Assembly (NCBI GenBank): GCA_964441265.1
Contig: CAYYKJ010000003.1
Coordinates: 23,428-87,427, forward strand
Length of the DNA: 64,000 nucleotides
From: an uncultured archaeon
GTDB taxonomy: Archaea > Aenigmatarchaeota > Aenigmatarchaeia > QMZP01 > QMZT01
Direction: 5' to 3'
Shown: in pieces, positions 1,928-60,734 of the stretch
Position numbering within the stretch: position 1 is the first letter of the stretch
Layout: each line of letters begins with the position of its first letter
The notes under the pieces: model-generated
Told to the model about the DNA's origin: nothing
Databases searched by the model: none
Seen by the model: only the letters and a program-made list of their open reading frames with translations
Position numbers and translations under genes: made by a program

Positions 1928-2854
1928 TTGTCTCAAAAGCACCCTCCGGGCCACAAAGGCGGGGAAAATCATATTTATATGTCCTTCGCACAAAAGATTT
2001 CCATGGCACCTGGCATCGAGACTCTGCTGCAGACCGTGTATGCATGGATAATGGGCTTCATTGAGGGCTTTCTGCCCAAATATGTTCTGCCCAACCTGCA
2101 GCTCATAATACAGATAATACTGATACTTCTGGTAGGGTACATAATAGGTAAGGCGGCCAAGGCGATCGCCAGGAAGATACTCAACGTGGCCGGTCTCAAG
2201 CGCATAACCTCCAAGAGCCTGACGGAAGATATACTGAAGATAACCGGATACAAGGGAAACATAGTGGAGCTGATAGGTGACCTGGTCAAATGGACCATAT
2301 ACATAATCACGCTCGCAGTGGTGGTCCAGGTCCTCGGATTCACCACCGTCTCCCTCATATTCAACCAGATACTCATCATAGTTCCCAGGTTCATAGTGGC
2401 CATACTGGTCATCGTCATAGGGTTCATAATAGCCGATTTCTTCAGCAAGATATTCGAGGAGGCCGCCTCGAGGATGCTGGGAGAGGAAACCCTGAGCAAG
2501 TTCTCCGGGGGGCTGATAAAATACAGCGTCTCCATGATAGCCATAGTAATCGCCCTGGCCCTGATAGGGCTGGACATCACCGCCATCGTCATACTCTTCG
2601 GGGCCATACTGGTGATAGTGATAATCATAACCACCTTCGGAATGAAGGACCTCATCCCCAACTTCACCGCAGGGCTTTCCCTGAGGGGGGACTTCAGGGT
2701 GGGCGAAAAGGTAAAGATCAGAAACTGCTCCGGGAAGCTGGTGAAGATCGGCCCGTATTCGGCCGAGCTTACGGACGGGAAGAGGACTTTCAGGGTGCCG
2801 AATTCGGTCCTCTACAACGAGATATCCGAAAAGGGTGTCAGCGGAAAGGAATAG
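1928..2854 (+). CDS. MscS-family small-conductance mechanosensitive channel
   Basis: 308 aa with three N-terminal TM helices and the MscS-like core ...LSLRGDFRVGEKVKIRNCSGKLVKIGPYSAELTDGKRTFRVPNSVLYNEIS (beta-domain pattern). Confidence 0.7.
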   Translation: MSQKHPPGHKGGENHIYMSFAQKISMAPGIETLLQTVYAWIMGFIEGFLPKYVLPNLQLIIQIILILLVGYIIGKAAKAIARKILNVAGLKRITSKSLTEDILKITGYKGNIVELIGDLVKWTIYIITLAVVVQVLGFTTVSLIFNQILIIVPRFIVAILVIVIGFIIADFFSKIFEEAASRMLGEETLSKFSGGLIKYSVSMIAIVIALALIGLDITAIVILFGAILVIVIIITTFGMKDLIPNFTAGLSLRGDFRVGEKVKIRNCSGKLVKIGPYSAELTDGKRTFRVPNSVLYNEISEKGVSGKE

Positions 2855-3112: not shown

Positions 3113-3532
3113 TCAATCGTCTGCGGTCTCTTTCCCCGTTCTATCGTAGTATTGCAGATTTTTTATGACATTTTCGGCACAACCCCGTATGAGTTCCCTT
3201 GCTATTCTCAACCTCTTCCCGTGATCGGTGTAATGCCCCACTTGCTTTATCAAAAGATCCCCCGACAAAAGCTTTTCGCGGGGATAATAACTGCCTTCGT
3301 AATTTTCATACTTGCCAAAAAAATGTATGGGCACGCCATGCTTTGAGAGGTACGAAACGACACCAGAGGAAAAACTCAGTCGACCATGGGCATATATTGA
3401 ATATATCTTCTCTATGGGGAGGATTCTCCTTTCCATCTTCCCCTCTTCGTTGTTTCTGACAAAATAAACTGTGTTCTGCTTTCTTTTGAGTATGCCGTCC
3501 TTTGTTATGAAAAAATTGACCTTCATTTCCAT
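3113..3532 (-). pseudogene. cas1: cas1 N-terminal fragment, 139 aa, truncated before the catalytic domain
   Basis: YFVRNNEEGKMERRILPIEKIYSIYAHGRLSFSSGVVSYLSKHGVPIHFFGKYENYEGSYYP...LLIKQVGHYTDHGKRLRIARELIRGCAENVIKNL matches the Cas1 N-terminal beta-sandwich domain and the first helices. The ORF stops about 190 aa short of a full Cas1, and no cas2 follows. Confidence 0.7.
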
Positions 3533-3551
3533 ACCACCGATTATGTGACAA

Positions 3552-4952
3552 CTAAAGCTTATCCATAGCTATTATTTCTACCCCGAACTTCTCTCCGGCT
3601 TTCCCGGGCCCATCAAAACCAGAGCACACTATTATGAATTTCTCCGAGAAGTTTAAGCTGGCATTTATTTTTGATGATTTCTCCTTAAGGGATTTGGATA
3701 TCCTTTCAATGTCCCTGTCTTTGAGGCGACCAAGTTTGGCTTCGCCAATCAGAAGCTTCCTGCCTATCCTGTCTATGCCCAGTATGTCCACCTCAGACTT
3801 CCTGTCCCACCAGCGGCCGAATATGTAGTCCTTATATTTGTCCATATGAACAAGTTCAGATATTGCTACTTCTTCAAACGCATGCCCTGCGAATGAACCG
3901 AGTTCCATTAATATCTTATTATCCACAAGGTTTTCCTGCCGGCCCTGTTCGACATATTCCAGATTTTCAAAAACAAACCTGAACCAGAATCTGAAGAAGT
4001 TGTCCTTTATGACATATATGCCATTCCTCGAGCGGGAAGCGTTTTTTTCTGTTACCGGAACCCTTCTTTCAATAATGTGTAGGTTTGACAGCGTATCCAA
4101 ATATTTGTTGACAAAAGACTTCTCAAAGCCCGTGTCGTTAACTATCTGGCCGGGCCTTGTATTTCCCTTTGATATCGAGTATAATATGGAGAAATAGTTT
4201 TTTGGCTCTTTCAGTTCCTCTCTCAGGGTGAAGAGGACGTCCTGGAAAAGGAACCTGTTTTTCATCAGTACATTCCGAAGGATATTCTCCCTTATGCCTT
4301 TGTCGAAGTTAAACTCAAGCAGGTATGCCGGCATGCCGCCGAGCACGGCGTAATTCATCACCTTTTCCCTGAAGGGCATTCTTTCCGGGAAAAAGCGGCA
4401 CGCGTCCCTGAAATTAAGCGGCTCCAGCAGCATCTGCTCAGTTCTCCTGCCATATATGGGGCTTTTATGTCCGAGGAGCCTCTCCATCATCGACATTGAC
4501 GAGCCGCACAGCACGATAAATGCATTTTTTTCCGAAAGGTTATTATCCCAATGGTCCTGAAGTATGGAAGTCACCTTCTTCGAGGACTGTACCATGTAGG
4601 GAAATTCATCGAAAACAACCGGCATCCTGGGTTTTGACGCAATATAAGCGAAAAGTGCGTCCCAACTGGAGAAGGGGCTCAGCCTGAGCACGTCATCATT
4701 GAAAAACTCCGCCACCGAGCGACTGGCGCTCCTCAGTTGTTCCCTCTCTGATTCCTGCCTGGCAAGTATGTACAGCCCTTTATGTTTTTTGAGGAATTCC
4801 TTCAAGAGTTCTGTCTTCCCGACCCTTCTTCTCCCGTAAAGTATTATGAGCTTTGGGGCACCTTTTTCATAAAGTCCGTTCAAAAGCTTCAGTTCAGATA
4901 CCCTGTTTTTGAAATTTGCGCCCTTTGCTCTGTTGGATTTAGTATACTTCAT
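3552..4952 (-). CDS. AAA+ ATPase of the archaeal-ATPase type with a C-terminal DUF234-like PD-(D/E)xK nuclease-fold domain
   Basis: Walker A motif LILYGRRRVGKTELL. The C-terminus ...SEVDILGIDRIGRKLLIGEAKLG... shows a D...EAK nuclease-like motif. It lies 40 bp downstream of cas4 and 20 bp upstream of the cas1 fragment. Confidence 0.7.
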   Translation of the reverse strand: MKYTKSNRAKGANFKNRVSELKLLNGLYEKGAPKLIILYGRRRVGKTELLKEFLKKHKGLYILARQESEREQLRSASRSVAEFFNDDVLRLSPFSSWDALFAYIASKPRMPVVFDEFPYMVQSSKKVTSILQDHWDNNLSEKNAFIVLCGSSMSMMERLLGHKSPIYGRRTEQMLLEPLNFRDACRFFPERMPFREKVMNYAVLGGMPAYLLEFNFDKGIRENILRNVLMKNRFLFQDVLFTLREELKEPKNYFSILYSISKGNTRPGQIVNDTGFEKSFVNKYLDTLSNLHIIERRVPVTEKNASRSRNGIYVIKDNFFRFWFRFVFENLEYVEQGRQENLVDNKILMELGSFAGHAFEEVAISELVHMDKYKDYIFGRWWDRKSEVDILGIDRIGRKLLIGEAKLGRLKDRDIERISKSLKEKSSKINASLNFSEKFIIVCSGFDGPGKAGEKFGVEIIAMDKL

Positions 4953-4991
4953 AGTAGTATAATGTATAATATACTATTTAAAGGTTTTTCC

Positions 4992-5543
4992 TCACTTCAC
5001 CCAGCAAAATTCAAAATAGCTGCATTTTCTACACATTTTCCTCTTTTCTGGTTCCGGTGGCTTCTCCATTGAAACTATATCACTTATATTTCTCAGGATG
5101 TCTTTTATTCTAGTTTCATTGTCCTCGGTAAGAATGATGGATTTTGTCTTCCTTAATTTGGGGTAATCTATCACCCCCTCAGCATCTACGCCTTTCTGTT
5201 TGAGATAATAAAGGTAATACAGGAGCTGGCAGACGTGGGCGTCTTCCATCTTGTTTGACTTCTTGATGTCGTGGAGCAACAGCTTGCCGCCTCTTTTCAT
5301 GAAATCTATGGATATCCTGGAATCTATCATTATTTCTTTCTTGGCGCCGGCATAGCTTGCTTCATGAATCACCCTGCCCATGGCCACGGCATCGGATTCG
5401 CGCTCCTGCCTTATGAAATGCGAGAAATACCAGAGTTTGGTGGGGCATATCACGTAATAGTTTACCTGCGTCCCTGTGAAGACACATTGCTTCGAAATCA
5501 TACGAATGGCCTCAGAACTCAAGAATCTCATCAACAAATGCAC
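4992..5543 (-). CDS. cas4: Cas4 RecB-like nuclease, apparently intact
   Basis: N-terminal FTGTQVNYYVICPTKLW, a QLLYYLYYLKQKG (QxxxY) motif, an IDF...LLHDIKK (D...DxK) motif, and a C-terminal CRKCSYFEFC cysteine cluster. All four Fe-S cluster cysteines are present. Confidence 0.8.
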   Translation of the reverse strand: MHLLMRFLSSEAIRMISKQCVFTGTQVNYYVICPTKLWYFSHFIRQERESDAVAMGRVIHEASYAGAKKEIMIDSRISIDFMKRGGKLLLHDIKKSNKMEDAHVCQLLYYLYYLKQKGVDAEGVIDYPKLRKTKSIILTEDNETRIKDILRNISDIVSMEKPPEPEKRKMCRKCSYFEFCWVK

Positions 5544-6882
5544 AGAAGACCAATGCAGGAATCAGCATTATATTGATGTTCTTGTCTTTAACTATCCTGA
5601 AATCGCTCTTTGTTATTATGAATCCACTGCTGCATCCGATCTTCCTCATCTCTTCTTTTACTTTCTTGATGTCCTTTTTTGTTACCCTTTCCCTGTATTT
5701 GACCTCGATTAACGTCGTCTTTTCGCCTTTGACCACAAAATCTATCTCACCGTTGCTTCTGAGATACGTCATCCTCTTTCCATGCTTCGAACAACTGATG
5801 AAACAGTGAACTCCCACTATGTTTTCAATGACAAACCCTTCGTTGTCTTCCTTTATCTCATAGTCCCTGAGCAATGAGTTCCTTATGCCCTGGTCCACGC
5901 ACAGGAATTTCTTTTTGGATTTCAGCTGCTCCTTAACCGTTTTGGCAAGCTTCAGTATTTCGATTATGAGATAGGATGATTTCAAATACTCTATATAATT
6001 TGTGAGTATCTCATGCTTCAGCCTTGCCGCCTCGTTTATTTTTTCATAGCTTAATATCCTTGACTGGTTTGCAATGATGAAAACGAAAATCTGCTCCAGA
6101 ATCTTTGCATTCCTTATTCTGAAAGTAGTCGTTATGTCCTCGTATATCGCCTTGTTTGAAATTGAGTTTTTCAGTATTCTGAACCAGTCCCTGAAGTCTT
6201 TCACCTCAAAGAATTCGGGAAATCCTCCTGCAAGCATGTACTGCCTGAAATCCTTTTTGTACGCATCAAGGATTTTATCAACCGAAACGGCATCTGTTTT
6301 AAAATGAGTGACCTCCGTCCCCTTAAGCTCCATGAACTGCCTGAAGGACAAGGGCCATACCTCATGCAGAATGTATCTGCCCCTCAGGTACCTGTTGGCT
6401 TCTTTTTGCAGGGTCAGGCTTGACGAACCCGAAATGAATATCTTTATGTCTTTGTGTCTGTCGTATGCAACCTTAAGCCATTTGTACCACTCACTAACAA
6501 AATGTACCTCATCGAAAAACACGTATTTTTTACCTTCTTCCGCTATATTTTCCAGCCAGTAATCAAAAATGTCCTTGATAAGGTTATCAGAATATATCTT
6601 AAGATATGGATCCTCAAGAGAATAGTACAGAATGTTCCTGGGCTTTGCTCCCTGCTTGATGAGCCTCGCCATGATGTGCTTCATCAGGACGCTCTTGCCA
6701 ACCCTCCTCGGCCCGGTAATTATGGATATCTTTTTCAGCCGGGCGTCGCTGTGAATCTCCTCGACCTCGTCCCTCTCCAGGGGGTAATCCTCCTTCTCCT
6801 CAACCTTCCCGGTAAGCCAGAACCTGTTCGCCTTCTCAAGCTCCTGCCTGAAGACCCCCCTGTCCTTTATCATATTAACCAT
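5512..6882 (-). CDS. AAA ATPase of the AAA_14/DUF4143 type with a C-terminal PD-(D/E)xK-like domain
   Basis: Walker A motif ISIITGPRRVGKSVLMKHI, Walker B motif VFFDEVH, and a C-terminal GEIDFVVKGEKTTLIEVKYRE nuclease-like motif. Its 3' end overlaps the cas4 start, which suggests an operon. Confidence 0.7.
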   Translation of the reverse strand: MVNMIKDRGVFRQELEKANRFWLTGKVEEKEDYPLERDEVEEIHSDARLKKISIITGPRRVGKSVLMKHIMARLIKQGAKPRNILYYSLEDPYLKIYSDNLIKDIFDYWLENIAEEGKKYVFFDEVHFVSEWYKWLKVAYDRHKDIKIFISGSSSLTLQKEANRYLRGRYILHEVWPLSFRQFMELKGTEVTHFKTDAVSVDKILDAYKKDFRQYMLAGGFPEFFEVKDFRDWFRILKNSISNKAIYEDITTTFRIRNAKILEQIFVFIIANQSRILSYEKINEAARLKHEILTNYIEYLKSSYLIIEILKLAKTVKEQLKSKKKFLCVDQGIRNSLLRDYEIKEDNEGFVIENIVGVHCFISCSKHGKRMTYLRSNGEIDFVVKGEKTTLIEVKYRERVTKKDIKKVKEEMRKIGCSSGFIITKSDFRIVKDKNINIMLIPALVFCAFVDEILEF

Positions 6883-6984
6883 TATAGTGGAACATATTTA
6901 TATATTTTTATGCCAGTATAGTGGGAGAAAAGAAAAAGCAACGTCGAGCTCAAGACTTATAACTTTTGGTGATTTTTTAAGAAA

Positions 6985-7066
6985 GCCTGACCGGGCATAC
7001 AATGTAATGATTTACATGGGTTCCTGTGAAGAGATATTCCTTCGCCAGTAGGTCTTGCATAATACC
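6985..7066 (-). pseudogene. cas4: Remnant of a second cas4 gene (N-terminal 27 codons, then a stop)
   Basis: The minus strand translates to MQDLLAKEYLFTGTHVNHYIVCPVRLS*. Compare the intact Cas4 KQCVFTGTQVNYYVICPTKLW. DNA identity with the 5457..5489 region is about 75%. Confidence 0.5.
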
Positions 7067-7288
7067 TCACACAAGCAATAAAAATAACCAGGCAGGAACA
7101 AACATAATCCTTTTTTGTTTAACTCTTTTTTCTTCCAACCTTTCCCGCGTTCATAACGTATTTTATTTGTATTATGGCACAAGTAACCTTTAAGTCTACT
7201 TGTAGAATCATATAAGTAAATTTTGGCGAGTTTTTGGCACGGCTGTTAGGAAAGCGGGTTTAAGACGGGATCTGATTCGGGTTTTGGG

Positions 7289-8506
7289 TTAGATGATGTT
7301 ATTTCCAAATTGATTTATTTCCTCTTTGTCTATATCTTTTATAACATCGATTCCCTTTTCTCTTATACTGTCCATGGTTTCTTTTTTCTGCTTTTTCATG
7401 ACAAAAAATCCTTTGAATTCATGGGAGACTAATCCCCACTTAAGCCAGGGCTTTGCCAGATAAAATTCTGGCAAATTCACTGAATATTCATACAGTATTT
7501 TCTTTAATTTCCATCTTAGGTTTTTTCTTTCTTGATTATTCTCACTTATTTCGATTCCATCTTTTTGTAACTTGTCTAGTATCTCATTCCAAGAAATATT
7601 ATTATTTTCTCTATCATTAATTATTTTAGCAAATGTTTTTCTCAATTTCACATCATCCTCCTCTTTTTCATTTTCTTCTTGCTCTTCAATCTCCATCAAT
7701 TGAGGAATAACCATTTGCATTCCACCAAGTCTTCTGAAAATTCTTTGGGCGTCACTTCTTTTTTCAGCTGTAAGGTACTTTAAATAATCTAGATTTTTCT
7801 TTATCTCTAGTATGTATTTTGAAGTTAGCGAATTTCCATCCTCCTCCTTTCCAAAAACATCATCGATCAGCTCTCTTTCTTTTTCATAATTGAGCGGTTG
7901 ATTCTCAAATTTCTTTAGAATTTTCACAGTGGATTCCATTACTTCTTCATCATAAATTGCCTTGCTTCCCCTGTCTTTACTGAAATTTGAAAAGACAATT
8001 ATGTTTGGTTCAACGACTTTATTTTCCTTATTCCTATTTATTCTCCCCCATCTCTGAATTTGGCTATCAATAGGGGAAACCTCCGTGATCATAAAATCGA
8101 AGTCTACATCTACAGATGCCTCAACCATCTGAGTAGATACCAAGATTACTTTTTTGCCTTCATCCAACCTCTCTTTAATTTTCTCTATTCTTTTACCTTT
8201 TACTTTCTCTGTTAGCCGTGAATTTAGCAAGAAAAAGCCGTCTTCTTCATTTTTTCCAAATTTTTCATAAAGTTCTATTGATTTTTTTACATTGTTTACT
8301 ATTATCATGGTACTGACTTCGTTTTCTTTAAAATCCTTCACCGGGAATATATTGGAAAAGCAGAAGTATTTGTATGTCCTTTTGTCGTGAAGCTCATCAT
8401 AGGCACTGCCCTTCAATAATTTATAGAAAAAACCCTGCAATTTTTTATAATACAACATATCATAAACACAATCCTTCTCAACATTGAAATTCAGGAGAAT
8501 TCTCAT
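7289..8506 (-). pseudogene. cas3: In-frame fusion of a Cas6 N-terminus (about 58 aa) to the Cas3 helicase C-terminal half. This is a remnant of a type I-B-like cas operon.
   Basis: The N-terminus MRILLNFNVEKDCVYDMLYYKKLQGFFYKLLKGSAYDELHDKRTYKYFCFSNIFP looks like a Cas6 N-terminus with the F-x-F-S motif. It is followed by MIIVNNVKKSIELYEKFG...FFLLNSRLTEKVKGKRIEKIKERLDEGKKVILVSTQMVEASVDVDFDFMITEVSPIDSQIQRWGRINR, which matches Cas3 helicase motifs IV to VI plus the Cas3 C-terminal domain. The HD domain, Walker A and DEAH motifs are absent. Confidence 0.65.
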
Positions 8507-29477: not shown

Positions 29478-29537
29478 CGGAAAACCTATTTAAATTATTA
29501 AAGACAATAGCAAAAATAATCTCATGGCCGCCTGAAC

Positions 29538-29647
29538 GGGACGGTAGCTCAGTTCGGGAGAGCACATGGCTGAAGACCATGGAGTCGTGGGTTCAAAAAC
29601 GCTTGAAGCCGAATGGTCGGCTTCCGTCGAAATTCCCACCCGTCCCA
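29538..29647 (+). tRNA. tRNA-Phe(GAA) with a roughly 36-nt intron in the T-loop at position 59/60
   Basis: GGGACGG-TA-GCTC-AGTTCGGGA-GAGC-A-CATGG-CTGAAGA-CCATG-GAGTC-GTGGG-TTCAAA-[intron 29598..29633]-T-CCCAC-CCGTCCC-A. All stems pair, and a T-tract follows. Confidence 0.7.
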
Positions 29648-29681
29648 CTACATTTTTTAATCATCGGGCTCAATTAGTAGT

Positions 29682-30818
29682 ATGCTTTCTGAAAGAGCGA
29701 AAAACTGCAGTCCTTCCCCGACACTCGCCATTTCCGCGAAGGCTAAGGCCCTGAAGTCTCGGGGGGAGGATGTGGTCGACCTGGGGGCAGGCCAGCCGGA
29801 TTTCGACACTCCGGAACACGTAAAGAGGGCAGCCATAAGGGCAATACAGGAGGGGTTCAACAAATATACCTCCGCCTCGGGCATGCCGGAACTGAAGAAG
29901 GTCATATGCGAGAAATTCAGAAGGGACAACGGGATATCCTACAGGCCGGAGCAGATAGTGGTATCCTGCGGGGCGAAGCATTCCATACACAACATCATCC
30001 AGGCAATGATAGGTCCCGGAGACGAGGTAATGATTCCCAGACCATACTGGGTCACTTACCCGGAGCAGGTCCGACTGGCGGGAGGGAAACCAGTAGTCAT
30101 CGAAACCGGTGAGGATTTCAAGCTGAGATCCGAAAACGTGAAAGACGGTATAACCAACAAAACGAAACTGCTTCTGATGAACTCACCTAACAACCCCACG
30201 GGAGCGGTTTACGAGAAGGGGGAGATGATGAAGATAGCAGAGATCGCCCTGGAAAACGACTTCATGATAATTTCAGACGAGGTGTACGAGAACATAATCT
30301 TCGATGCTGAGCACTTCAGCGTGGCATCCATGGGGAACAAGATAAAGAACATCACCTTTACAGTGAATGCGATAAGCAAGACCTACTGCGTGACCGGTTG
30401 GAGGCTGGGATATACTGCAGGTCCTGCGAAGGTAATGAAAGCTATAGGAAACATCCAGAGCCACACCACCTCCAATCCCGCATCCATGGTCCAGAAGGCA
30501 GCCCTGGAAGCGATTTCCGGGCCGCAGGACTTTCTGAAAGGCATGAAAGATAGATTCAGGGAAAGGAGAGACTACATACTCAAGAGGATGGACGAGATGG
30601 GGCTGGAATGCCCCGAACCGGAGGGCGCTTTCTACGTCTTCCCCGGAATCCCCGACAATTCCAGCAAGTTCTCAGAAGAGCTCCTGGACACCGAAAGGGT
30701 GGGAGTTGTTCCGGGTATCGGATTCGGCATGGAAGGTCACATCAGAATCAGTTACGCAGCTTCTCTGGAAAGGATAAGGGAAGGCATGGACAGGATGGAG
30801 AGGTTCCTGAAGAAATAA
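29682..30818 (+). CDS. aspC: Aspartate aminotransferase (class I aminotransferase)
   Basis: 378 aa with the PLP-lysine region SKTYCVTGWRLGY and class-I aminotransferase blocks. Confidence 0.8.
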   Translation: MLSERAKNCSPSPTLAISAKAKALKSRGEDVVDLGAGQPDFDTPEHVKRAAIRAIQEGFNKYTSASGMPELKKVICEKFRRDNGISYRPEQIVVSCGAKHSIHNIIQAMIGPGDEVMIPRPYWVTYPEQVRLAGGKPVVIETGEDFKLRSENVKDGITNKTKLLLMNSPNNPTGAVYEKGEMMKIAEIALENDFMIISDEVYENIIFDAEHFSVASMGNKIKNITFTVNAISKTYCVTGWRLGYTAGPAKVMKAIGNIQSHTTSNPASMVQKAALEAISGPQDFLKGMKDRFRERRDYILKRMDEMGLECPEPEGAFYVFPGIPDNSSKFSEELLDTERVGVVPGIGFGMEGHIRISYAASLERIREGMDRMERFLKK

Positions 30819-37142: not shown

Positions 37143-38081
37143 TTGATTAAAAACATTGGATACGGAAAGACTATACTTTTCGGTGAGCATTTCGTGGTTT
37201 ACGGGCTGCCAGGTATAGCAGCCGCACTGGAAGACTACAATGTTGCTAAAATCGAGAAGGGAGAAGGAAGCGGGTTCGTCCTTGTTGACAACAGGAAGGA
37301 GACCCCGGGATACAAGGAGAAGAAGAAAGATGAAATCCATAAAGCGATTGATCTCATGATAAAATTTCTGAAAATCGACACTGAAAAGAATCCGATAAAG
37401 ATCACTCTTGAGGGCACGCTCCTCTGCACGAGCGGGAACGGCTCCTCCTCTGCGATGTCGACTGCCATTGCCCGTGCCCTCTCGGAATATTTCGGCCTCG
37501 GGCTGGACGAAGACCAGATAAACGAGGTTTCCTACGAGGGAGAGAAGGCGTCCGCGGGAACGCCCTCCGGGATCGACAACTCCTGCGCCACATACGGGGG
37601 AATCATCATCTTCAAAAAGAACCTAAAAGTCGGCCCCAATTTCATCGACCAGTTCAAGATAAAGGAGCCGTTAAGTATCGTGCTCGCAAATACGGGAATA
37701 ACACAGAGCACCGCGGAGGTCGTGGGGGACGTGAGGAAGGAAAAGGAGGCGAATCCGGAGAAATACGAAAGGATATTCAGGGAATACAATGAGATGTTCG
37801 AGAGAGGAAAGAAGGCACTTGAGGATTACGACCTGGAAGAAATCGGAAAACAGATGGAAAAGAACCAGGATCTCCTCAGGGAAATCACGGTGTCCTGCCC
37901 TGAAATCGAGAAAGTGATCAAGGTTGCCAAGGCCAATGGCGCGATAGCAGCAAAACTGACCGGTACAGGAAGGGGCGGCAACGTCCTGATTCTTGTCAGG
38001 GACGGCGAAACCCAGGACAGGGTGGCGGAATCGATTGAAGGGGAAGGGTTCAAGACGGTTAAGACAAGGATAGGGGTTTAA
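37143..38081 (+). CDS. mvk: Mevalonate kinase
   Basis: GKTILFGEHFVVYG and GNGSSSAMSTAIARAL GHMP-kinase motifs. Confidence 0.8.
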   Translation: MIKNIGYGKTILFGEHFVVYGLPGIAAALEDYNVAKIEKGEGSGFVLVDNRKETPGYKEKKKDEIHKAIDLMIKFLKIDTEKNPIKITLEGTLLCTSGNGSSSAMSTAIARALSEYFGLGLDEDQINEVSYEGEKASAGTPSGIDNSCATYGGIIIFKKNLKVGPNFIDQFKIKEPLSIVLANTGITQSTAEVVGDVRKEKEANPEKYERIFREYNEMFERGKKALEDYDLEEIGKQMEKNQDLLREITVSCPEIEKVIKVAKANGAIAAKLTGTGRGGNVLILVRDGETQDRVAESIEGEGFKTVKTRIGV

Positions 38082-39193
38082 ACGACCCCTTTCTTCGCCA
38101 TTTTGACGTCCAGCAGGTGTATTCCCTGCTCTTCCCAGGAATTCCTGATTTTTCCGGCGGTTTCCTCGTCAAAGCATATCGCTATTCCGCAATCCCCTCC
38201 GCCGGCTCCGGAGAGCTTTCCTGCACCGCCGTTGTCCTTTGCGAGTTCGCTGAGTTTTCTGAGGTCATCGGTTTCGATATTGACTCCTGTTTTTTCACCC
38301 AATTCCCTCAGGTAATCCTCGTTCCTGCTCAGTAGTTCGAGTATTTTTTCCTTATTCCTCTTCTTCCAATCAGTAATCAAGTCTCTGACAAGGTTAGCGA
38401 TCTGTTCGAAGAGGCGATTGTATTCCTCCCGGTTGTCCTCTGCCCATGCATTGAGCTGCTTGACCATGGCAGAGGTGGACGCGGATTTCTTTGTCCATCC
38501 GACGAGCATTATCAGGTCGTCAGAAACTTCAAGCTCCTCGACCATGTAACTCGGCCATTCCTGTTCAGCGACCTCTTTCACCGATGCTCCGCTTTCCAGC
38601 CTCTCCATTAGCCACTTCGGATCGAAACGCTGGTAGACGAATACCCCTCCGAACGTGGAAGCGGCTACGTCGAAGGCCGAGCCGACCTTTCCCTGCGCGA
38701 AATAATGGGTCATTGCGGAGAGCTTGTATATCAGGTCCTTGGTCTCCCTCTTGGAAATGTCCCTTCCTTGGAATGCAAGGATCCCGGAAACTGCAGCCAC
38801 GACCGCCGCAGCAGAGCTCCCGAAACCGATCTTCCTCATTTCCCCGTCAACCTCTATCTGGGACATCTCGCCCCAGGAACGGATCGAAAATGGCATGAAA
38901 TCCCCCAGATATCGAAGGGTGGTCTCGATGGAACCCTTGACGAATTTCAGGTATTCCTTTTCCTCTTCGGATATATCTCTTGACCATTTGAGCTCCGATC
39001 CGTCGAACTCACCCTCCAGATTCTCGATCTTGAAATCATCCAGAGTTATCCGTATCTTATCGCTTTCCTCGACCTTTGCGTGGACCCTCTTGTCCACCGC
39101 AGTAACTATTCCGGGGTTCCCTACCTCCAGAACGCTCCATTCCCCAGAAAGGAACAGCTTCCCCGGGGCGCTTACCTCAACCATCCATAACAC
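38078..39193 (-). CDS. pmk: Phosphomevalonate kinase, ERG8/bacterial-type GHMP kinase
   Basis: APGKLFLSGEWSVLE, GFGSSAAAVVAAV, LVGWTKKSASTSAMV and KLSGAGGGDCGIAICFD match bacterial PMK block for block. Confidence 0.75.
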   Translation of the reverse strand: MLWMVEVSAPGKLFLSGEWSVLEVGNPGIVTAVDKRVHAKVEESDKIRITLDDFKIENLEGEFDGSELKWSRDISEEEKEYLKFVKGSIETTLRYLGDFMPFSIRSWGEMSQIEVDGEMRKIGFGSSAAAVVAAVSGILAFQGRDISKRETKDLIYKLSAMTHYFAQGKVGSAFDVAASTFGGVFVYQRFDPKWLMERLESGASVKEVAEQEWPSYMVEELEVSDDLIMLVGWTKKSASTSAMVKQLNAWAEDNREEYNRLFEQIANLVRDLITDWKKRNKEKILELLSRNEDYLRELGEKTGVNIETDDLRKLSELAKDNGGAGKLSGAGGGDCGIAICFDEETAGKIRNSWEEQGIHLLDVKMAKKGVV

Positions 39194-39196
39194 CTC

Positions 39197-39724
39197 CTAT
39201 TTACGGCCCTTTGCTTTCAAGTATTCATTCAATGATCTCTCGAAATGCTCTGTCAGCTTCATCTCACCGGATTTCTCCTTTTCGAGCAGTTCTTCCATGG
39301 GGATGAATTTCGCCTCGTCCGCCTCCTTCCTGTCAACCCTGAAAGGTCCCTCTTGCCTCGCTTCCATCACAGCGACGAATTCCCTCTCGTCGAACGTCTC
39401 TAACATGTATTTGGTCACGAAAATCGGATTGATCTCGACTCCCAGTTCCTCCCTGCACTCCTTTTCCGTCGCCTGTTCATAAGTATCCCCGGACTTGACG
39501 TGGCCTGCGGCAGAGGACTGCCAGTAACCGGGCCGCTGCTTTCTCTTCATGGACCTCCTCTGCACGAATATCTCACCCTTTGAATTGAATACGAGCACAT
39601 GGATCTTACGGTGGATTTTCTTTTTTCCTGTATGGGCCTCGCCCCTCCTCATTTTACCGATCACTTCATCATTCTCATCCACCACGTCGAACATCTCTTC
39701 CGGGTTGTCAACCTTCTCTTTCAT
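39197..39724 (-). CDS. Nudix hydrolase
   Basis: Nudix box GHVKSGDTYEQATEKECREELGV. No IDI-1 catalytic Cys is present. Confidence 0.65.
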   Translation of the reverse strand: MKEKVDNPEEMFDVVDENDEVIGKMRRGEAHTGKKKIHRKIHVLVFNSKGEIFVQRRSMKRKQRPGYWQSSAAGHVKSGDTYEQATEKECREELGVEINPIFVTKYMLETFDEREFVAVMEARQEGPFRVDRKEADEAKFIPMEELLEKEKSGEMKLTEHFERSLNEYLKAKGRK

Positions 39725-40464
39725 ATCAATTCCATCAACTGCTGCTTTAAATTATTCAGGGAAAGCAAACGGATTCCTATCTCCTTGGCCTTCATTCGCT
39801 GCTCTTCAGTCGAATAACCCCAGTCCGCGAACAGAATGTTGGCGCCTGAATTGAGGACGGATTCGATCTGGAAGAAAACATCATCGATGAAGTAAATGTT
39901 CTCCATTGGGACGTTGAATCTCTTTGAAAACTCACTCAGGTGTTCGTTCTTGTCGGTAGAAAAGTCCTTGTCCAGGACCCTTTCTTCGGGCATCTTCACG
40001 CCGTGCTTTTCCAAGAATAAGATTGTCGCTTCCCGGTTCTTTGCCGTGCTTATGGCGACCACACACCTTTTCTGAAGGCTCTTAATCAGATCGATCAGAC
40101 AGGGATAAACCTTTATAAGACTAAATAATCTGGAATAGTTCTTTTCTGTGATCATCTTCCTCGTTTCGAAAAATATGTCCCGGAACTCCTCTGCTTTCCC
40201 CCCTGATTCCGAAATCAAAAGATTGAGATCCTTTGCTCCCATGACCCGAAAATCTTTTCCTTCCAGTATGGTTTTAATTAAAACATAAATATCCTGGGCC
40301 ATCCTCACGTAGGGTCTTGCATCAATCAATTTTTGGTAAAAATCCTTATCTACTGAAAGGTCTCTGCCCTCCATTCTGTCGAAGGCTTCCAGTGCCACAT
40401 GATATGTCTCGTGCTTGGTATCAGCTATAACACCGTCAAAATCGAAAACGAACATCTTCATCAC
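39721..40464 (-). CDS. HAD-superfamily hydrolase
   Basis: Motif I FVFDFDGVIADT, and FIDDV toward the C-terminus. Confidence 0.65.
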   Translation of the reverse strand: MMKMFVFDFDGVIADTKHETYHVALEAFDRMEGRDLSVDKDFYQKLIDARPYVRMAQDIYVLIKTILEGKDFRVMGAKDLNLLISESGGKAEEFRDIFFETRKMITEKNYSRLFSLIKVYPCLIDLIKSLQKRCVVAISTAKNREATILFLEKHGVKMPEERVLDKDFSTDKNEHLSEFSKRFNVPMENIYFIDDVFFQIESVLNSGANILFADWGYSTEEQRMKAKEIGIRLLSLNNLKQQLMELI

Positions 40465-40470
40465 ACCACT

Positions 40471-41463
40471 TCAGAAAAGGTGTTCATCCGTCATTTTCGC
40501 CGGCCCGCCGACCTTGCAGATGTGGGTGTCCTCCACTACCCCGAGGTCTTTCAGCCGCTTCTCGATTTCTTCCGAATCCTTGGACCAGCAAAGCACCTTT
40601 ACCTGGGGACCTCCATCTATGGTGAAATAGCATTCCAGACCACCGTCCCTCCATTCCATTACCGAATGTATTATCTTTATCGTGGAGGGGTTCCAGTATA
40701 TTATAGGCGGTGTCGTGGTCATCATTACCGCGTGCATCTTCAGGCAGTTCATTTCAACCGTTTCCCCGAGAAGCTTGAAATCCTTCTCGGTGATCGCCTT
40801 CCTCACGTTTTCGATGTCCTTCCCGCACTCTTCTACCCATTTCCGGTAATATGGGCAGTTATCCACGCTCATGGCCATACCGGCCCTGCTCTTGATTTTC
40901 TTCTCCTCCTTGGTTGTCACCGCAACGACCATGTCGAGGTCCCAGTGATCAGGAGAAGCGATCTGCTCCGCAAAGGAGTCGGTACCGTCCTCCTTCTCCC
41001 CCCGGTGCCACCATACGAAGCCGCCTGCTATGGACCTGGATGCGGATCCCGATCCCCTTCTGGAGAGCATGGACAGCTCTTTCTCGCCGAGATCGAGGCC
41101 GGCGGCCTTCGCACCTGCCATGCTCAGGGCAGCAAATCCTGAAGCGGAAGATGCCAGCCCGGCGGCCGTGGGAAAATTATTCACCGACATCACCTTGGCC
41201 TTCTCGGATATTCCTGCCATCTCCCTGATCAGGTCGATGTGCTTGATCACCTTGGAGAGCTCCTTTCCCTCTGTCAGCTCCTCCCCGTTCAGAATTACAA
41301 TGTCCTCATCATACTTTGAATCGAATTCCACCGTGGTGGTGGTTGTCATCCCGTCCAGAGTCATGGACGTGCTCCCGGCCTGCGGGAGCATGAGCTTCTT
41401 GTCTCTCTTGCCCCAATATTTGGTGAGGGCAATGTTAGCATTGGCAATGGCTGTCGCCTTCAT
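40471..41463 (-). CDS. mvaD: Diphosphomevalonate decarboxylase family protein
   Basis: NIALTKYWGKRD, AAGLASSASGFAAL and RRGSGSASRS motifs. Confidence 0.75.
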   Translation of the reverse strand: MKATAIANANIALTKYWGKRDKKLMLPQAGSTSMTLDGMTTTTTVEFDSKYDEDIVILNGEELTEGKELSKVIKHIDLIREMAGISEKAKVMSVNNFPTAAGLASSASGFAALSMAGAKAAGLDLGEKELSMLSRRGSGSASRSIAGGFVWWHRGEKEDGTDSFAEQIASPDHWDLDMVVAVTTKEEKKIKSRAGMAMSVDNCPYYRKWVEECGKDIENVRKAITEKDFKLLGETVEMNCLKMHAVMMTTTPPIIYWNPSTIKIIHSVMEWRDGGLECYFTIDGGPQVKVLCWSKDSEEIEKRLKDLGVVEDTHICKVGGPAKMTDEHLF

Positions 41464-43946: not shown

Positions 43947-44957
43947 ATGCAGGGAAAGATCACCGGTTCCAGGAAGGCTGATCACATAGACATCTGCCTC
44001 GGGAAGGACGTTGAGTACTCCAAGAGCAACGGCTTCGGGAGGTATGACCTTCCCCACAGGGCTCTGCCCGAGGTTGATCTTCAGGAGATAGACTGCTCGT
44101 GCAAGTTCTTCGGGAAGAAGCTGGGCTATCCATTGTTTGTGACTGGGATGACCGGAGGGACCGACCGGGCACTGGAGATAAACAGGAACATAGCCAGGGC
44201 AGCGGAGGTGCTGGGGATCGGCTTCGGAGTGGGTTCCCAGAGGGCAATGCTGGAGAATCCCTCGCTGACAAGAACTTACAAGGTCCGCAAGCTGGCGCCC
44301 AACGTCCTTTTTCTGGGCAACATAGGGGCGGGCCAGCTCCAAGAATATGACCCGGGGAAGATAAAGCTCATGGTGGAGAAGATCGAGGCGGACGGGCTGG
44401 CCCTGCACCTGAACCCCGCGCAGGAGATGGCCCAGGACGAGGGGGATTATTCATGGTCGGGGGTGCTGGACATGATAAAGAAACTTACCAGGTCAGTTGA
44501 TTTCCCGGTGATGGCGAAGGAGGTCGGGACGGGAATATCGGGAGACGTCGCCAGGATGCTTGCGGGTGCCGGCGTGAAAGCCATAGACGTGTCCGGGGCA
44601 GGCGGGACCTCCTGGATAAAGGTGGACTCCTACAGGAGCGGAAGGGAGATGGATTCCTTTTTGGAATGGGGCATCCCGACCGCGGAGGCCCTGAAAGATA
44701 CGGTTTCCAAGGTAAGGGTCCCGGTGATGGCGAGCGGGGGCATAAGGAACGGCATAGAGGCGGCGAAGGCCATTGCTATGGGCGCCTCTCTCGCGGGTTT
44801 CGCGCTCCCGGTGCTGGAGCCCGCCACGAGGGGATGGGAAGCGGTGAAGGAGAGGATGGAAAGGATCATCTTCGAGCTGAAGACTGCCATGTTCCTTTCG
44901 GGGGCGAAAAACCTCGCGGAGCTGCGAAGAAACAGGCTAACAGAAAGATATAAGTGA
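43947..44957 (+). CDS. fni: Isopentenyl-diphosphate isomerase type 2 (FMN-dependent)
   Basis: KADHIDICL...FVTGMTGG...MASGGIRNGIEAAKAIAMGA TIM-barrel IDI-2 pattern. Confidence 0.8.
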   Translation: MQGKITGSRKADHIDICLGKDVEYSKSNGFGRYDLPHRALPEVDLQEIDCSCKFFGKKLGYPLFVTGMTGGTDRALEINRNIARAAEVLGIGFGVGSQRAMLENPSLTRTYKVRKLAPNVLFLGNIGAGQLQEYDPGKIKLMVEKIEADGLALHLNPAQEMAQDEGDYSWSGVLDMIKKLTRSVDFPVMAKEVGTGISGDVARMLAGAGVKAIDVSGAGGTSWIKVDSYRSGREMDSFLEWGIPTAEALKDTVSKVRVPVMASGGIRNGIEAAKAIAMGASLAGFALPVLEPATRGWEAVKERMERIIFELKTAMFLSGAKNLAELRRNRLTERYK

Positions 44958-45875: not shown

Positions 45876-46271
45876 TCATCTCATGCTGAAAGAATACCTT
45901 CCGGGAGCCCATTTACCTCCCGAGGCCCGGTAGCCACATTTGGGGCATTTAGCTCCGGATACGAGCTTACGGCCCTTCAGGTTCTTGGTGTAGAATCTTC
46001 GGAGGCCGTGGCCGCAGGAGGGGCATTTTTTTCGGGACTTTCCTTTTTTCGTGCGGATGATGACCCTGATTCCGCTGGCTTTCAGGCAGATTTTCCTTAT
46101 CCTGGAACCGGAAATGGTATATCTCGGCTCGACCTTCTTGAGGTCGGCATTCACCATCTCGCCCAGCTTCTTCTGTGAATCCACTTCCCTCTTCTTCAGG
46201 ATCTTTCTGAGAATGAAGACCACCACGTCCTCCTTGGGACGCTTGGAACCCTTAACTTTCGCCCTGGGCAT
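45876..46271 (-). CDS. Basic zinc-ribbon protein (putative nucleic-acid binding)
   Basis: C-terminal CPSCGH...CPKCGY ribbon. Lys/Arg-rich. Confidence 0.4.
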   Translation of the reverse strand: MPRAKVKGSKRPKEDVVVFILRKILKKREVDSQKKLGEMVNADLKKVEPRYTISGSRIRKICLKASGIRVIIRTKKGKSRKKCPSCGHGLRRFYTKNLKGRKLVSGAKCPKCGYRASGGKWAPGRYSFSMR

Positions 46272-50590: not shown

Positions 50591-53076
50591 TAAATATTCA
50601 TCTTCCAGTTGAGTTGTCCCCAGTCGGTCTTCGATGGGTCCATCCCGTCCTCGCCAGCAAAGAACTGTATGACATTGTTATTGGAATCCCTGACCGCCAT
50701 GTCCTCGCAGACCTTGAGGTCCTGAAGAGAATTCATGAGCCTTCTCTGCATGTAACCGGACTTTCTGGTACGGAGCGACTTGTCCATGAGCCCCTCCCTG
50801 CCGTTCATCACGTTCCAGAAGAACTCGAAAGGGGTGAGCCCCTGTTTGAATCCCCTCGAAACGAAGCCGTGCGCCTCTGCCGAAAGGTCTCCCTTGGCGA
50901 AATGGGGAAGTATCCTATCCATGTAGCCTCTCTCTATCCTCTGACCAAGTATGGTTTCCGATCCGACGCAGGCGGACATCTGGGTAGTGTTTATGTTAGA
51001 ACCCTTGGCTCCGGAAGAGGACATCACGAGTATGTCGCTGGGGCTTATCTTCTCAACCATTATCTCGCTGACCCTGTTCAGCCCCTCCGCAAGCGCGGAG
51101 AGTATCTGGGTCTCCAGTGACTCCTTGGGGGTCATCCCGGGAAGCACTTTTATCTTCTTATTCTTGTATTCCCCGATGAGCCTGTCCGCATCCACCTTCG
51201 ACTTGTCTATTTCCTTTTTTATGTCCGAGAGAGTCCTCTTGGGAAGGTCAAGGTCTGTCAATCCTATGGAAAATCCCCTTTCCATGAGATAGGAAACCGA
51301 AATTCTTCCGAGATGGTCTATGAAATTCTTGAGTTCCTCGTTGTTGACGTTCCTCCTCACCTTGTTTATCATCTTCCCCTTGAAGGCTCCCACTGCAGAA
51401 CTGTCCAGAACTCCGCTGACAAGCTCCCCGTTCTTGATTGACACCCATGCATCATAGGGACATTTTTCCCTCGTACACTTTTCGCATTCCCTGCATATCC
51501 CCGCCTTGTATTCCATGTTGAGCCCCTTCGGCAACAGGAGGCTTATGACTTCTTTCCCGGTGAACTTCTCCTTGTCGGGAATCTCGGCTTCAATTCTCGC
51601 CCGGGCGAAGAGTTCAGATGCCTCCTCTTTCGTGAAAACATTTCCCTTCTGGCTAAGCAGGAATATTCCTGATATCTGGTCCAGGTCCAGCCCCACCAGG
51701 GGCCCCCCGAATCTGGGTGATATTATATTGTTCTTGACGTCCATGAGCTCCAGTGCCTCCACCTGGGCCTCTTCGGACTGCAGGGCATGTATGTTCATCT
51801 CGTCCCCGTCGAAATCCGCGTTGTAAGGGGCACAGACGCTCGGGTTCAGCCTGAATGTCCTGTGGGGAGTCACCTTTACACGATGGGCCATTATGGACAT
51901 CCTATGAAGGGAGGGTTGCCTGTTGAACAGAACCACGTCCATGTCCTTCAGCTGCCGGTCTATTATCCATCCTTTCTCGAGAGAGGAAAGTATTTCCTTC
52001 TTGTTTTCCTCGGTCACCTTTATCTTCCTGCCATCGAGCCTGGTGACGTAGTTGACCTTGCCGTCTTTCAGCATGCTCTTGACGTCCTTCATGTTTAGCG
52101 AGGTTATGGTCTGGGGTATGGTCAGCTCGCTGGCCACTATGTCCGGTATGCCCACCTCGTTTATGGAGAGCGTAGGGTCGGGGCTGATAACGGTCCTTGA
52201 CGAATAATTCACCCTCTTTCCGAGAAGGTTGCCCCTGATCCTTCCCTCCTTGGCCTTGAGCCTCTGTATCATTCCCTTCAGCGGCCTCCCTGACCTGTGT
52301 CTTGCCTGGGGAACACCCGTCAGCTGGTTGTCGAAATAGGTGGCCACGTGATACTGGGAAAGCTCCCATAGGTCATTGAGTATGAATTCGGGCGCTCCTA
52401 TGTCTATGTTCTCCTTCAGGGACTGGTTTATCCTCACTATGTCCACCAGCTTGTGTGTCAGGTCGTCCTCTGACCTCTCCCCCGTCTCCAGCGTGATGCT
52501 GGGCCTCATGGTCACGGGGGGTATCGGGAACAGCGTGAGTATGAGCCACTCCGGCCTGCCTCCCCGGAAACCCAGCTTCTCCAGGTCATCTTTGGATATC
52601 CTTTCCATCCATTCCCGGATAAATATGGGATTGAGCTCCTCTTTTCCGGCGTAATAGGTGAATGGCTTGGAAAACTTTATCTTCTTCTGTTGCTTGCCGC
52701 AGTGGGGACACCTCTTGGTAGCGCTCTTGGAGGCCTGCTTGAGGGAGACCGGATTCTTGGATAGTATCTTACCGCACTTCATACAGGTCGCCTTCATGAG
52801 CTGGTAAATCTGCTTCGTGTAAAGTACGTGGACCACCGGCCTGGCCAGTTCCAGATAACCGAAATGCCCGGGGCAGTCCCCTATGCTTGCCCCGCATGTC
52901 CTGCACCTTATACCGGGATCAACGACTCCCATCCTCGGGTCCATCACTCCGCCGTCTACGGGGTAACCGTCCGCATCGTAAAGGTCGGAAGTGACGATCC
53001 TGACGGTAGCCAGCGATTTGATTATTTCCGGGGACAATATTCCGAAACCCATGGCTTCTATTTTTGCAGTGTTCAT
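50590..53076 (-). CDS. rpoA1: DNA-directed RNA polymerase subunit A'
   Basis: N-terminal Zn motifs (CRTCGASIGDCPGHFG), NADFDGDEMN and other RNAP largest-subunit blocks. 828 aa. Confidence 0.9.
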   Translation of the reverse strand: MNTAKIEAMGFGILSPEIIKSLATVRIVTSDLYDADGYPVDGGVMDPRMGVVDPGIRCRTCGASIGDCPGHFGYLELARPVVHVLYTKQIYQLMKATCMKCGKILSKNPVSLKQASKSATKRCPHCGKQQKKIKFSKPFTYYAGKEELNPIFIREWMERISKDDLEKLGFRGGRPEWLILTLFPIPPVTMRPSITLETGERSEDDLTHKLVDIVRINQSLKENIDIGAPEFILNDLWELSQYHVATYFDNQLTGVPQARHRSGRPLKGMIQRLKAKEGRIRGNLLGKRVNYSSRTVISPDPTLSINEVGIPDIVASELTIPQTITSLNMKDVKSMLKDGKVNYVTRLDGRKIKVTEENKKEILSSLEKGWIIDRQLKDMDVVLFNRQPSLHRMSIMAHRVKVTPHRTFRLNPSVCAPYNADFDGDEMNIHALQSEEAQVEALELMDVKNNIISPRFGGPLVGLDLDQISGIFLLSQKGNVFTKEEASELFARARIEAEIPDKEKFTGKEVISLLLPKGLNMEYKAGICRECEKCTREKCPYDAWVSIKNGELVSGVLDSSAVGAFKGKMINKVRRNVNNEELKNFIDHLGRISVSYLMERGFSIGLTDLDLPKRTLSDIKKEIDKSKVDADRLIGEYKNKKIKVLPGMTPKESLETQILSALAEGLNRVSEIMVEKISPSDILVMSSSGAKGSNINTTQMSACVGSETILGQRIERGYMDRILPHFAKGDLSAEAHGFVSRGFKQGLTPFEFFWNVMNGREGLMDKSLRTRKSGYMQRRLMNSLQDLKVCEDMAVRDSNNNVIQFFAGEDGMDPSKTDWGQLNWKMNI

Positions 53077-57181: not shown

Positions 57182-57183
57182 AA

Positions 57184-57255
57184 CGCCTCGGCCGGGATTT
57201 GAACCCGGGTCCTGGGAGTGACAGTCCCAGATGATAACCACTACACTACCGAAGC
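57184..57255 (-). tRNA. tRNA-Asp(GUC), 72 nt, no encoded CCA
   Basis: GCTTCGG-TA-GTGT-AGTGGTTA-TCAT-C-TGGGA-CTGTCAC-TCCCA-GGAC-CCGGG-TTCAAAT-CCCGG-CCGAGGC-G. Only 2 nt separate it from the downstream Trp-like gene. The D-stem has one mismatch. Confidence 0.75.
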
Positions 57256-57327
57256 ATTAATTCCGGACTGACTGATGTCTTCTTTATTTATTTACAAATT
57301 TAAATATATTCTTATTCGTGGTTTCTT

Positions 57328-59448: not shown

Positions 59449-59868
59449 TTACTTTTTTGCTTTAACCAGTCCGTACACCAATTCGAATGCATCAAGCTCA
59501 CCGACAAGTTTCCCCTTTTCGCACACAGGTATGTCCTGAATCTTGAAAACCTTGGCTACCCTCAGAGCGTCCTCCAGATCATCATCCAGCGTTACAGTTT
59601 CAGGCTCAATCATCACATCTTTTGCCGTTTTTATGGCCTTCTTTCCGAGAAAAAAAATAATCTTATTCGGACCTATGTCAGGTCTTACGCATTTAAATAT
59701 TTCATTGGTCGTTATTACGCCGATTAGTTTATTGGAATTGCCCACTACGTATACGTTTCTCCTTCCTCTGTCTTTAATGAAAATATCTATAACTTTGTCT
59801 ATTGGTTTGTCCGGATTTACTGTTTTTACTTTATCTGAAAACGCCCTATAAACATCCCCCACTTTCAT
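59449..59868 (-). CDS. CBS-pair domain protein
   Basis: Two CBS motifs (VYVVGNSNKLIGVIT...; VCEKGKLVGELD). 139 aa. Confidence 0.7.
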   Translation of the reverse strand: MKVGDVYRAFSDKVKTVNPDKPIDKVIDIFIKDRGRRNVYVVGNSNKLIGVITTNEIFKCVRPDIGPNKIIFFLGKKAIKTAKDVMIEPETVTLDDDLEDALRVAKVFKIQDIPVCEKGKLVGELDAFELVYGLVKAKK

Positions 59869-60712: not shown

Positions 60713-60734
60713 ATATTCTAATTGCCGGGCAAGG

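Follow-up and report, generated by a model that had tools for sequence, protein, structure and literature searches.

The stretch of DNA analyzed in the current work, referred to as the window, is 64 kb in length and carries on its plus strand, at positions 29538-29647, a tRNA-Phe gene composed of a 60-nt first exon, a 36-nt insert (AACGCTTGAAGCCGAATGGTCGGCTTCCGTCGAAAT) and a 14-nt second exon (Table 1). Divided into its structural elements, the first exon reads GGGACGG-TA-GCTC-AGTTCGGGA-GAGC-A-CATGG-CTGAAGA-CCATG-GAGTC-GTGGG-TTCAAA and runs directly into the insert, after which the gene continues as T-CCCAC-CCGTCCC-A, the CCA 3' end not being encoded. When the insert (29598-29633) is deleted, the joined exons form a 74-nt sequence which is recognized by ARAGORN as tRNA-Phe(GAA), with a T-loop that reads UUCAAAU and an A as discriminator base. 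The acceptor (7 bp), D (4 bp), anticodon (5 bp) and T (5 bp) stems of this 74-nt call consist exclusively of Watson-Crick pairs, in agreement with an earlier note on this DNA, which had described all four stems as canonical once the insert is removed.

The gene is flanked by two elements that may govern its transcription. Upstream, an A/T-rich block (TATTTAAATTATTAAAGACAATAGCAAAAATAATC), separated by 16 nt from the tRNA 5' end, probably corresponds to the archaeal TATA/BRE promoter region of tRNA-Phe. Downstream, the earlier note had reported a T-tract following the discriminator base; a run of six T is indeed present, with its start located 5 nt past the discriminator rather than immediately adjacent to it, and this run is likely to act as an archaeal transcription stop signal for tRNA-Phe. 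The tRNA-Phe gene adjoins a gene encoding a class I/II aminotransferase (29682-30818).

Table 1 Features of the tRNA-Phe locus and of its predicted bulge-helix-bulge (BHB) motif. Positions are those of the window; a slash within a bulge marks a predicted splice site; L001 and L002 are the two syntenic loci described in the text; MFE, minimum free energy.
Feature	Position	Strand	Description	Basis
Upstream A/T-rich block	29487..29521	+	Near-invariant in window, L001 and L002; neighbouring spacer diverges	
Exon 1	29538..29597	+	tRNA positions 1-59, acceptor 5' strand to T-loop UUCAAA	ARAGORN on spliced form
Exon 1 contents		+	Acceptor 5' strand, D arm, anticodon arm, variable loop, T-stem 5' strand, UUCAAA	
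Anticodon GAA	29572-29574	+	Within exon 1	
Intron	29598..29633	+	36 nt, BHB-type, position 59/60; ends contribute to splicing motif	
Exon 2	29634..29647	+	tRNA positions 60-73: U60, CCCAC T-stem 3' strand, CCGUCCC acceptor 3' strand, discriminator A	
Run of six T	29653..29658	+	T-run at equal relative place in L001 and L002	
h, outer helix	29587-29591 with 29635-29639	+	GUGGG/CCCAC, identical to T-stem; 5/5 pairs, invariant	
H, central helix	29592-29595 with 29628-29631	+	UUCA (U54 U55 C56 A57)/CGAA: U-A, U-A, C-G, A.C mismatch	
B1, 5' bulge	29596-29598	+	A58 A59 / A (intron base 1); predicted cut after 29597	
B2, 3' bulge	29632-29634	+	A U / U60; predicted cut after 29633	
h', inner helix	29599-29601 with 29625-29627	+	ACG/CGU	Present in MFE fold

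Elsewhere in the window, CRISPR-associated genes occupy positions 3113-8506 of the minus strand and comprise a Cas1 fragment (3113-3532) of only 139 aa that covers profile positions 1-125 out of 283, Cas4 (4992-5531) and the C-terminus of a Cas3-like helicase (7289-8506). The G+C content of this stretch is 0.41 versus approximately 0.50, and no CRISPR array was detected in the 64 kb. A cluster resembling the mevalonate pathway, located at 37356-41463, includes two GHMP kinases, a NUDIX hydrolase, a HAD hydrolase and a diphosphomevalonate-decarboxylase-like protein, and an FMN-dependent dehydrogenase is encoded at 43947-44957. The 131-aa product of an ORF at 45876-46271 (minus strand) displays a weak match to the Cas12f1-like TNB (zinc-ribbon) domain that falls short of the Pfam cut-off (E 2.7e-4) and may reflect a remnant of TnpB/IS200-605 type or chance. 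With regard to other RNA genes, an intact, intronless tRNA-Asp(GUC) is present at 57183-57256 of the minus strand (60.9 bits), at a distance of 3.3 kb from a 5S rRNA gene on the same strand (60602-60713; 46.4 bits), while neither 16S nor 23S rRNA was found in the window. A sub-threshold match to the archaeal C/D-box sRNA sR3 was obtained at 59560-59620 (minus strand; 22.8 bits), and a weak match to C/D-box sRNA sR58 at 29644-29668 (minus strand; 15.8 bits against a gathering threshold of 55), overlapping the T-run downstream of tRNA-Phe, was judged to be probably due to chance.

In its unspliced form the tRNA-Phe locus did not elicit an ARAGORN call, with the intron option either on or off, nor was it detected by Rfam at the gathering threshold. 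A permissive search with the Rfam tRNA model, the gathering score of which is 29, returned a partial match of 20.3 bits restricted to tRNA positions 8-63 (29545-29602). These missed calls are attributable to limits of the tools and do not constitute evidence against the gene.

The boundaries of the insert can be assigned without ambiguity for the spliced sequence. The last base of exon 1 is A and the last base of the intron is U, while the first base of the intron is A and the first base of exon 2 is U, and therefore the intron cannot slide along the exons. Its middle portion forms an 8-bp hairpin (29605-29612 with 29617-29624) that is closed by an AUGG loop and preceded by a CUU bulge. No target-site duplication borders the insert, and a second copy of the intron, which was sought as a sign of intron transposition, was not found in the 64-kb window at up to three mismatches. 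Group I and group II introns possess a catalytic RNA core and span hundreds of nucleotides; a self-splicing intron of either group was ruled out for this insert, which is only 36 nt in length and does not match any Rfam intron family.

The adjoining aminotransferase gene allowed the locus to be compared with its relatives. The closest non-identical aminotransferases are 77% and 74% identical to that of the window and are encoded at the loci here named L001 (GCA_016932215.1, a metagenome-assembled genome (MAG) annotated as ‘Candidatus Aenigmarchaeota archaeon’) and L002 (GCA_964447525.1), respectively. The phylum Aenigmatarchaeota belongs to the DPANN group (kingdom Nanobdellati), and it is from these relatives that the taxon of the window is deduced. 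All three loci have in common the gene order BacA - EamA - 90-aa ORF - tRNA - aminotransferase, and further along both L001 and L002 encode a long unannotated protein, Trm1, TFIIB and aIF5A, the slot of the long unannotated protein being taken in the window by PEP carboxylase. The tRNA-Phe gene of L002 is devoid of an intron (67.2 bits against the Rfam tRNA model), and has a T-arm, GTGGG-TTCAAAT-CCCAC, identical to the spliced T-arm predicted for the window. The L001 gene harbors a 31-nt insert at the same bond, so that the three sequences align with a clean indel between TTCAAA and TCCCAC. Exon 1 of the window differs from its orthologues in L001 and L002 at one to three positions, with no indels. 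At acceptor pair 7-66 the window has G-C, whereas A-U is found in L001 and G.U in L002, a pattern expected of a gene under purifying selection.

The inserts of the window and L001 are alike at their ends (A[A/G]CGCTTG...CCGT[C/T]GAAAT) and differ in their apical hairpins, the hairpin sequence of the window intron being absent from all orthologous loci compared. Aminotransferase identity amounts to 89% between L001 and L002, as opposed to 77% and 74% with respect to the window, which makes L001 and L002 sisters. The simplest history would be one in which the intron was present in the common ancestor and was precisely lost in the L002 lineage. The intron is apparently old and subject to quick turnover, its ends being kept, its interior replaced and the entire element precisely lost in one close relative.

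In order to sample tRNA-Phe genes more widely, a set of species-representative genomes (one per species) was scanned with a pattern that extends from the anticodon arm to TTCAAA and is blind to the sequence that follows, which retrieved ten tRNA-Phe genes from DPANN MAGs. In five of these (L005, L006, L007, L009 and L010, L007 being the contig of L002) TTCAAA runs straight into TCCCAC. The other five carry an insert at 59/60, of 31 nt in L012 (the contig of L001), 38 nt in L011, 58 nt in L008 and 124 nt in L003, while in L004 the contig ends inside the insert. A metagenome scan, restricted by its pattern to inserts of 20-50 nt, contributed L013 (37 nt) and L014, the latter being identical in sequence to L011. 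Six complete introns, of 31-124 nt, were thus available for comparison (window, L001, L003, L008, L011 and L013).

Several genes in this sample display further irregularities. L003 (CAYMDJ010000026.1, minus strand, ~2410-2640) contains two inserts, the 124-nt insert at 59/60 and a 23-nt insert at 9/10 (GGGACGGTA/ATCC...GCAA/GCTCAG) that is BHB-like with three of four pairs in its central helix; with both inserts removed by a multi-intron solver, the sequence is called by ARAGORN as tRNA-Phe. L004 (WAQT01000020.1, Ca. Aenigmatarchaeota, ~2460-2645) carries an extra D-loop insert of ~20 nt (GCTCAGCCCGGT-AGGCCGTAACGGCTTGGGCA-AGAGAGC), and the start of its 59/60 insert, AGAACCCTTTTGG, resembles that of L003, TGAACCCTTTTGC; L004 could represent a gene with a long intron or a split gene. 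In L013 (Ga0315536_1000666, 2407-2565; 34.3 bits for the whole tRNA-Phe against Rfam) the 37-nt intron at 59/60 is accompanied by a surplus of ~48 nt that separates the anticodon loop from the variable region; these nucleotides look like two more inserts and would bring the total to three. L009 (JBDRJQ010000003.1, ‘Nanoarchaeota archaeon’, minus strand, ~6263-6330) has an intact T-loop, and its acceptor 5' bases 1-3 (AUA) are unpaired with CCC while GGGGG is found ~18 nt upstream, an arrangement that suggests an intron at 3/4, or else a 5' end that is split or misassembled; a search of this gene gave no convincing BHB. The automatic multi-intron solver returned no credible solutions for L004, L009 and L013. 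Finally, both L003 and L013 possess an intact tRNA (2751-2823, minus strand, and 2206-2278, plus strand, respectively; 74.5 bits each) at a distance of ~130-200 nt from their disrupted tRNA-Phe, so that in these genomes intronless and multi-intron tRNA genes occur side by side.

These comparisons bear on the possibility that the window carries a dead tRNA-Phe gene, the T-loop of which was destroyed by a 36-nt insertion (for example a mobile-element scar or a replication slip) while another copy is used. The failure of standard tRNA finders to call the locus fits such a scenario, and a second tRNA-Phe copy may exist outside the 64-kb window. Against it, both exons are preserved intact and differ little from those of the intronless orthologue, with a compensatory change in the acceptor stem, and conservation extends to the upstream block and the T-run. 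Six or more other lineages have inserts at the same bond, in every case combined with BHB geometry and covarying helices, and neither a target-site duplication nor a second copy of the insert was found in the window. A dead gene is considered very unlikely.

The canonical archaeal tRNA introns at position 37/38 adhere to a strict hBHBh' geometry. In the motif recognized by the archaeal endonuclease, a helix H of 4 bp lies between an outer helix (h) and an inner helix (h'), and either strand bears a 3-nt bulge that is cut after its second base (PMC3239211, PMC5829648). The earlier note had named the lack of a predicted BHB at the junctions as a finding that would speak against its intron; a BHB is present there, nearly strict with one mismatch, and its central helix is open in the plain MFE structure. 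In a purely geometric scan for the hBHBh' layout, the 59/60 bonds represent the top-ranked candidate in the window, L001, L003 and L008, and are joint first in L011. In the window the A57.C mismatch within H adjoins the 5' bulge, and beyond h' the intron continues into the CUU bulge and the 8-bp hairpin. H is fully paired (4/4, UUCA/UGAA) in L001, L011 and L013 and contains three of four pairs in the window, L003 and L008, while h' ranges from 2 to 6 bp across the six complete introns. Both 3-nt bulges can be formed in the window and in all five complete orthologous introns. The window motif is a nearly strict hBHBh', slightly relaxed by a single mismatch in H.

With the junction held fixed, 0.9% of shuffled window introns, and 0.02-0.2% of shuffled introns from the other loci, form an H and h' as good as the real ones. 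Once the junction segments are aligned, pairing is seen in 93% of cells, as compared to 33-54% when the 3' partners are slid by one to three columns; this alignment is anchored on the inferred splice sites, so that its pair counts and covariation lean towards the model. All three h' pairs vary on both sides among the orthologous introns, and the resulting covariation score was reached by none of 500 shuffles, the six introns being not fully independent in that those of the window and L001 share ancestry. As the covariation of the helices indicates, what is conserved in the motif is structure rather than sequence.

The unconstrained MFE fold of the window precursor retains the T-stem, h' and the intron hairpin, and leaves UUC/GAA open within a 7x7 internal loop. 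This plain fold was rejected as a refutation of the BHB, considering that the BHB conformer lies only 1.9 kcal/mol above it and that in L013 the BHB conformer is itself the MFE fold; in four orthologues the difference amounts to 1.3-5 kcal/mol. The same fold could be taken to indicate a real intron that is cut at other bonds, for instance 58/59 or 60/61, or one in which the CUU bulge at 29602-29604 acts as cleavage bulge, given that it presents a 3-nt CUU bulge beside a 3-bp helix and lacks a central UUCA/CGAA helix, and given that the second-best BHB candidate of L003 lies one base to the left of 59/60. Cleavage at the CUU bulge, however, would leave a T-loop far too long for a tRNA, and the UUCAAAU found in the intronless genes of L002, L005, L006, L009 and L010 is obtained only from cuts at 59/60. 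As 59/60 is also the top BHB candidate in the complete introns, and the window sequence permits no sliding, alternative cut sites are regarded as extremely unlikely and 59/60 is retained as the predicted site of splicing. It is also extremely unlikely that the insert escapes removal and persists as an additional hairpin that projects from the T-loop of the mature tRNA at 59/60, where the bases point outwards at the elbow. Such a reading would be compatible with the stable hairpin, closed by ACG/CGU, into which the insert folds, its removal being a prediction. However, the inserts range from 31 to 124 nt and are unconserved in sequence save for the ends that build the BHB, a close relative has no insert, the exact 3-4-3 geometry would serve no role in a retained arm, and no such T-loop arm was found in the archaeal tRNA-intron literature searched, nor do we know of any retained arm of this 59/60 kind.

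Positions 29538-29647 therefore very probably constitute a functional tRNA-Phe(GAA) gene with a protein-spliced 36-nt BHB intron at 59/60, in a DPANN archaeon related to the Aenigmarchaeota/Aenigmatarchaeota MAGs. The earlier note had delimited this T-loop intron to 29598..29633, and exactly these coordinates are upheld by the ARAGORN call on the spliced form, the intronless L002 gene, six further contigs and the BHB.

Because the junctions fit the archaeal hBHBh' geometry in six complete introns, the mechanism is taken to be ordinary splicing by the endonuclease EndA and a ligase; the enzymes, the order of processing and the expression of the gene as described here are inferred. Transcription would start from the putative TATA/BRE promoter within 29487-29521. 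In the precursor, the T-stem (GUGGG/CCCAC) would serve as outer helix, U54-A57 would pair with the intron sequence CGAA ahead of the 3' bulge to form the central helix (three pairs plus A.C), A58-A59-A (the last being intron base 1) and A-U-U60 would constitute the bulges, and ACG/CGU together with the 8-bp intron hairpin would make up the inner helix. EndA would then cleave after 29597 and after 29633, i.e. after the second base of each bulge, and an RtcB-type ligase would join the halves to restore the T-loop UUCAAAU, the predicted spliced junction reading ...GGGUUCAAA/UCCCAC... Since CCA is not encoded, it would be added after ligation. Splicing probably precedes those processing steps that read the tRNA elbow, because the T54-A58 and elbow contacts cannot form beforehand.

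The type of endonuclease involved is of interest in view of the different motif requirements of the archaeal enzymes. The alpha4 and alpha'2 forms of EndA need a strict hBHBh', whereas the (alpha-beta)2 and epsilon2 forms accept relaxed motifs (HBh', hBH/BHL), in which a bulge is absent, disrupted or not 3 nt in length, and several DPANN lineages possess an alpha4 EndA with an extra ‘L3’ loop, which has been tied to more disrupted tRNA genes (PMC3239211, PMC5829648). None of the bulges in the window intron or in the five complete orthologous introns was found to be absent, disrupted or of a length other than 3 nt. A relaxed-specificity enzyme, which the earlier note had taken such introns to suggest, is not required by the window intron alone, because both of its bulges can be formed and H is perfect in three orthologues. 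The A57.C mismatch and the relatives with multiple inserts make a broad-specificity EndA in the window organism plausible, if unproven. A Pfam scan of the ~40 ORFs in the window, which covers 64 kb of the genome, revealed no tRNA_int_endo (EndA) domain, and a tblastn search of the window and the orthologous loci with an approximate M. jannaschii EndA probe produced only a chance-level match at 52702-52854 (E 0.039). Nor was an RtcB gene seen in these 64 kb.

Introns at 59/60 had been described in the earlier note as rare and lineage-restricted in Archaea, which is only roughly right: 59/60 is among the recurrent non-canonical sites of archaeal tRNA introns, with examples in tRNAs of Thermoproteales/Crenarchaeota (reviewed in PMC4090602), and has been documented experimentally in ARMAN-2 (Ca. 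Micrarchaeum, DPANN), where the 13-nt 59/60 intron of pre-tRNA-Cys(GCA) is cleaved in vitro by the organism's own EndA, and where tRNA-Pro(GGG) carries introns at both 53/54 and 59/60 (PMC3239211). The window intron shares with these ARMAN-2 59/60 introns the bond, the use of the T-stem as BHB outer helix and a DPANN host (PMC3239211). It differs in that the tRNA is tRNA-Phe and the phylum Aenigmatarchaeota-like, in that the intron is 36 nt long with a hairpin of its own as compared to the 13 nt of the ARMAN-2 tRNA-Cys intron, and in that both bulges are present in its nearly strict hBHBh', as opposed to the relaxed hBH (bulge-helix-loop) of the latter (PMC3239211). Closely related species of Thermoproteales are known to differ in the presence of tRNA introns (PMC4090602), just as intron presence varies between close relatives of the window gene.

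Compared with canonical 37/38 introns, the window intron has the same 3-4-3 geometry, with cuts after the second bulge base and presumed processing by EndA and RtcB, and is set apart by its location in the T-loop, the T-stem as outer helix, the participation of bases 54-57 in H and the fact that standard finders miss the gene. Relatives of the window with at least two inserts in tRNA-Phe (L003, L004 and L013) are reminiscent of the disrupted genes of Nanoarchaeum, Caldivirga and other Thermoproteales, while the window gene itself, unlike the split and multi-intron genes of those organisms, is contiguous with a single intron, and no signs of trans-splicing or permutation were seen for it. The window intron is thus a correct but ordinary case, since 59/60 BHB introns are already well described and it does not call for a new mechanism. 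A limited full-text literature search found no paper dealing specifically with tRNA introns in Aenigmatarchaeota.

The practical consequence lies in annotation. The only tRNA-Phe seen in the window is invisible to default finders, so that automated annotation would wrongly report tRNA-Phe as missing, and the same error is expected for half of the window's relatives. Beyond this, the six complete introns at one bond, together with one precise loss (between loci whose aminotransferases are 89% identical), form a comparative series that could be used to study the specificity of EndA and the way in which introns are gained and lost. In the small sample at hand, the number of inserts per tRNA-Phe gene ranges from zero to at least two, with apparently three in L013, and the sites include 9/10, the D-loop, a position 3' of the anticodon loop and 59/60. 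It is tentatively proposed, as an idea that falls somewhat short of probable, that Aenigmatarchaeota-like DPANN lineages are, like Thermoproteales and ARMAN-2, a hotspot of tRNA gene disruption, and one that has so far gone undescribed. If true, this would explain ‘missing’ tRNAs in such MAGs and would predict a broad-specificity EndA in the phylum, for example an alpha4 enzyme with the L3 loop as proposed for other DPANN lineages (PMC5829648).
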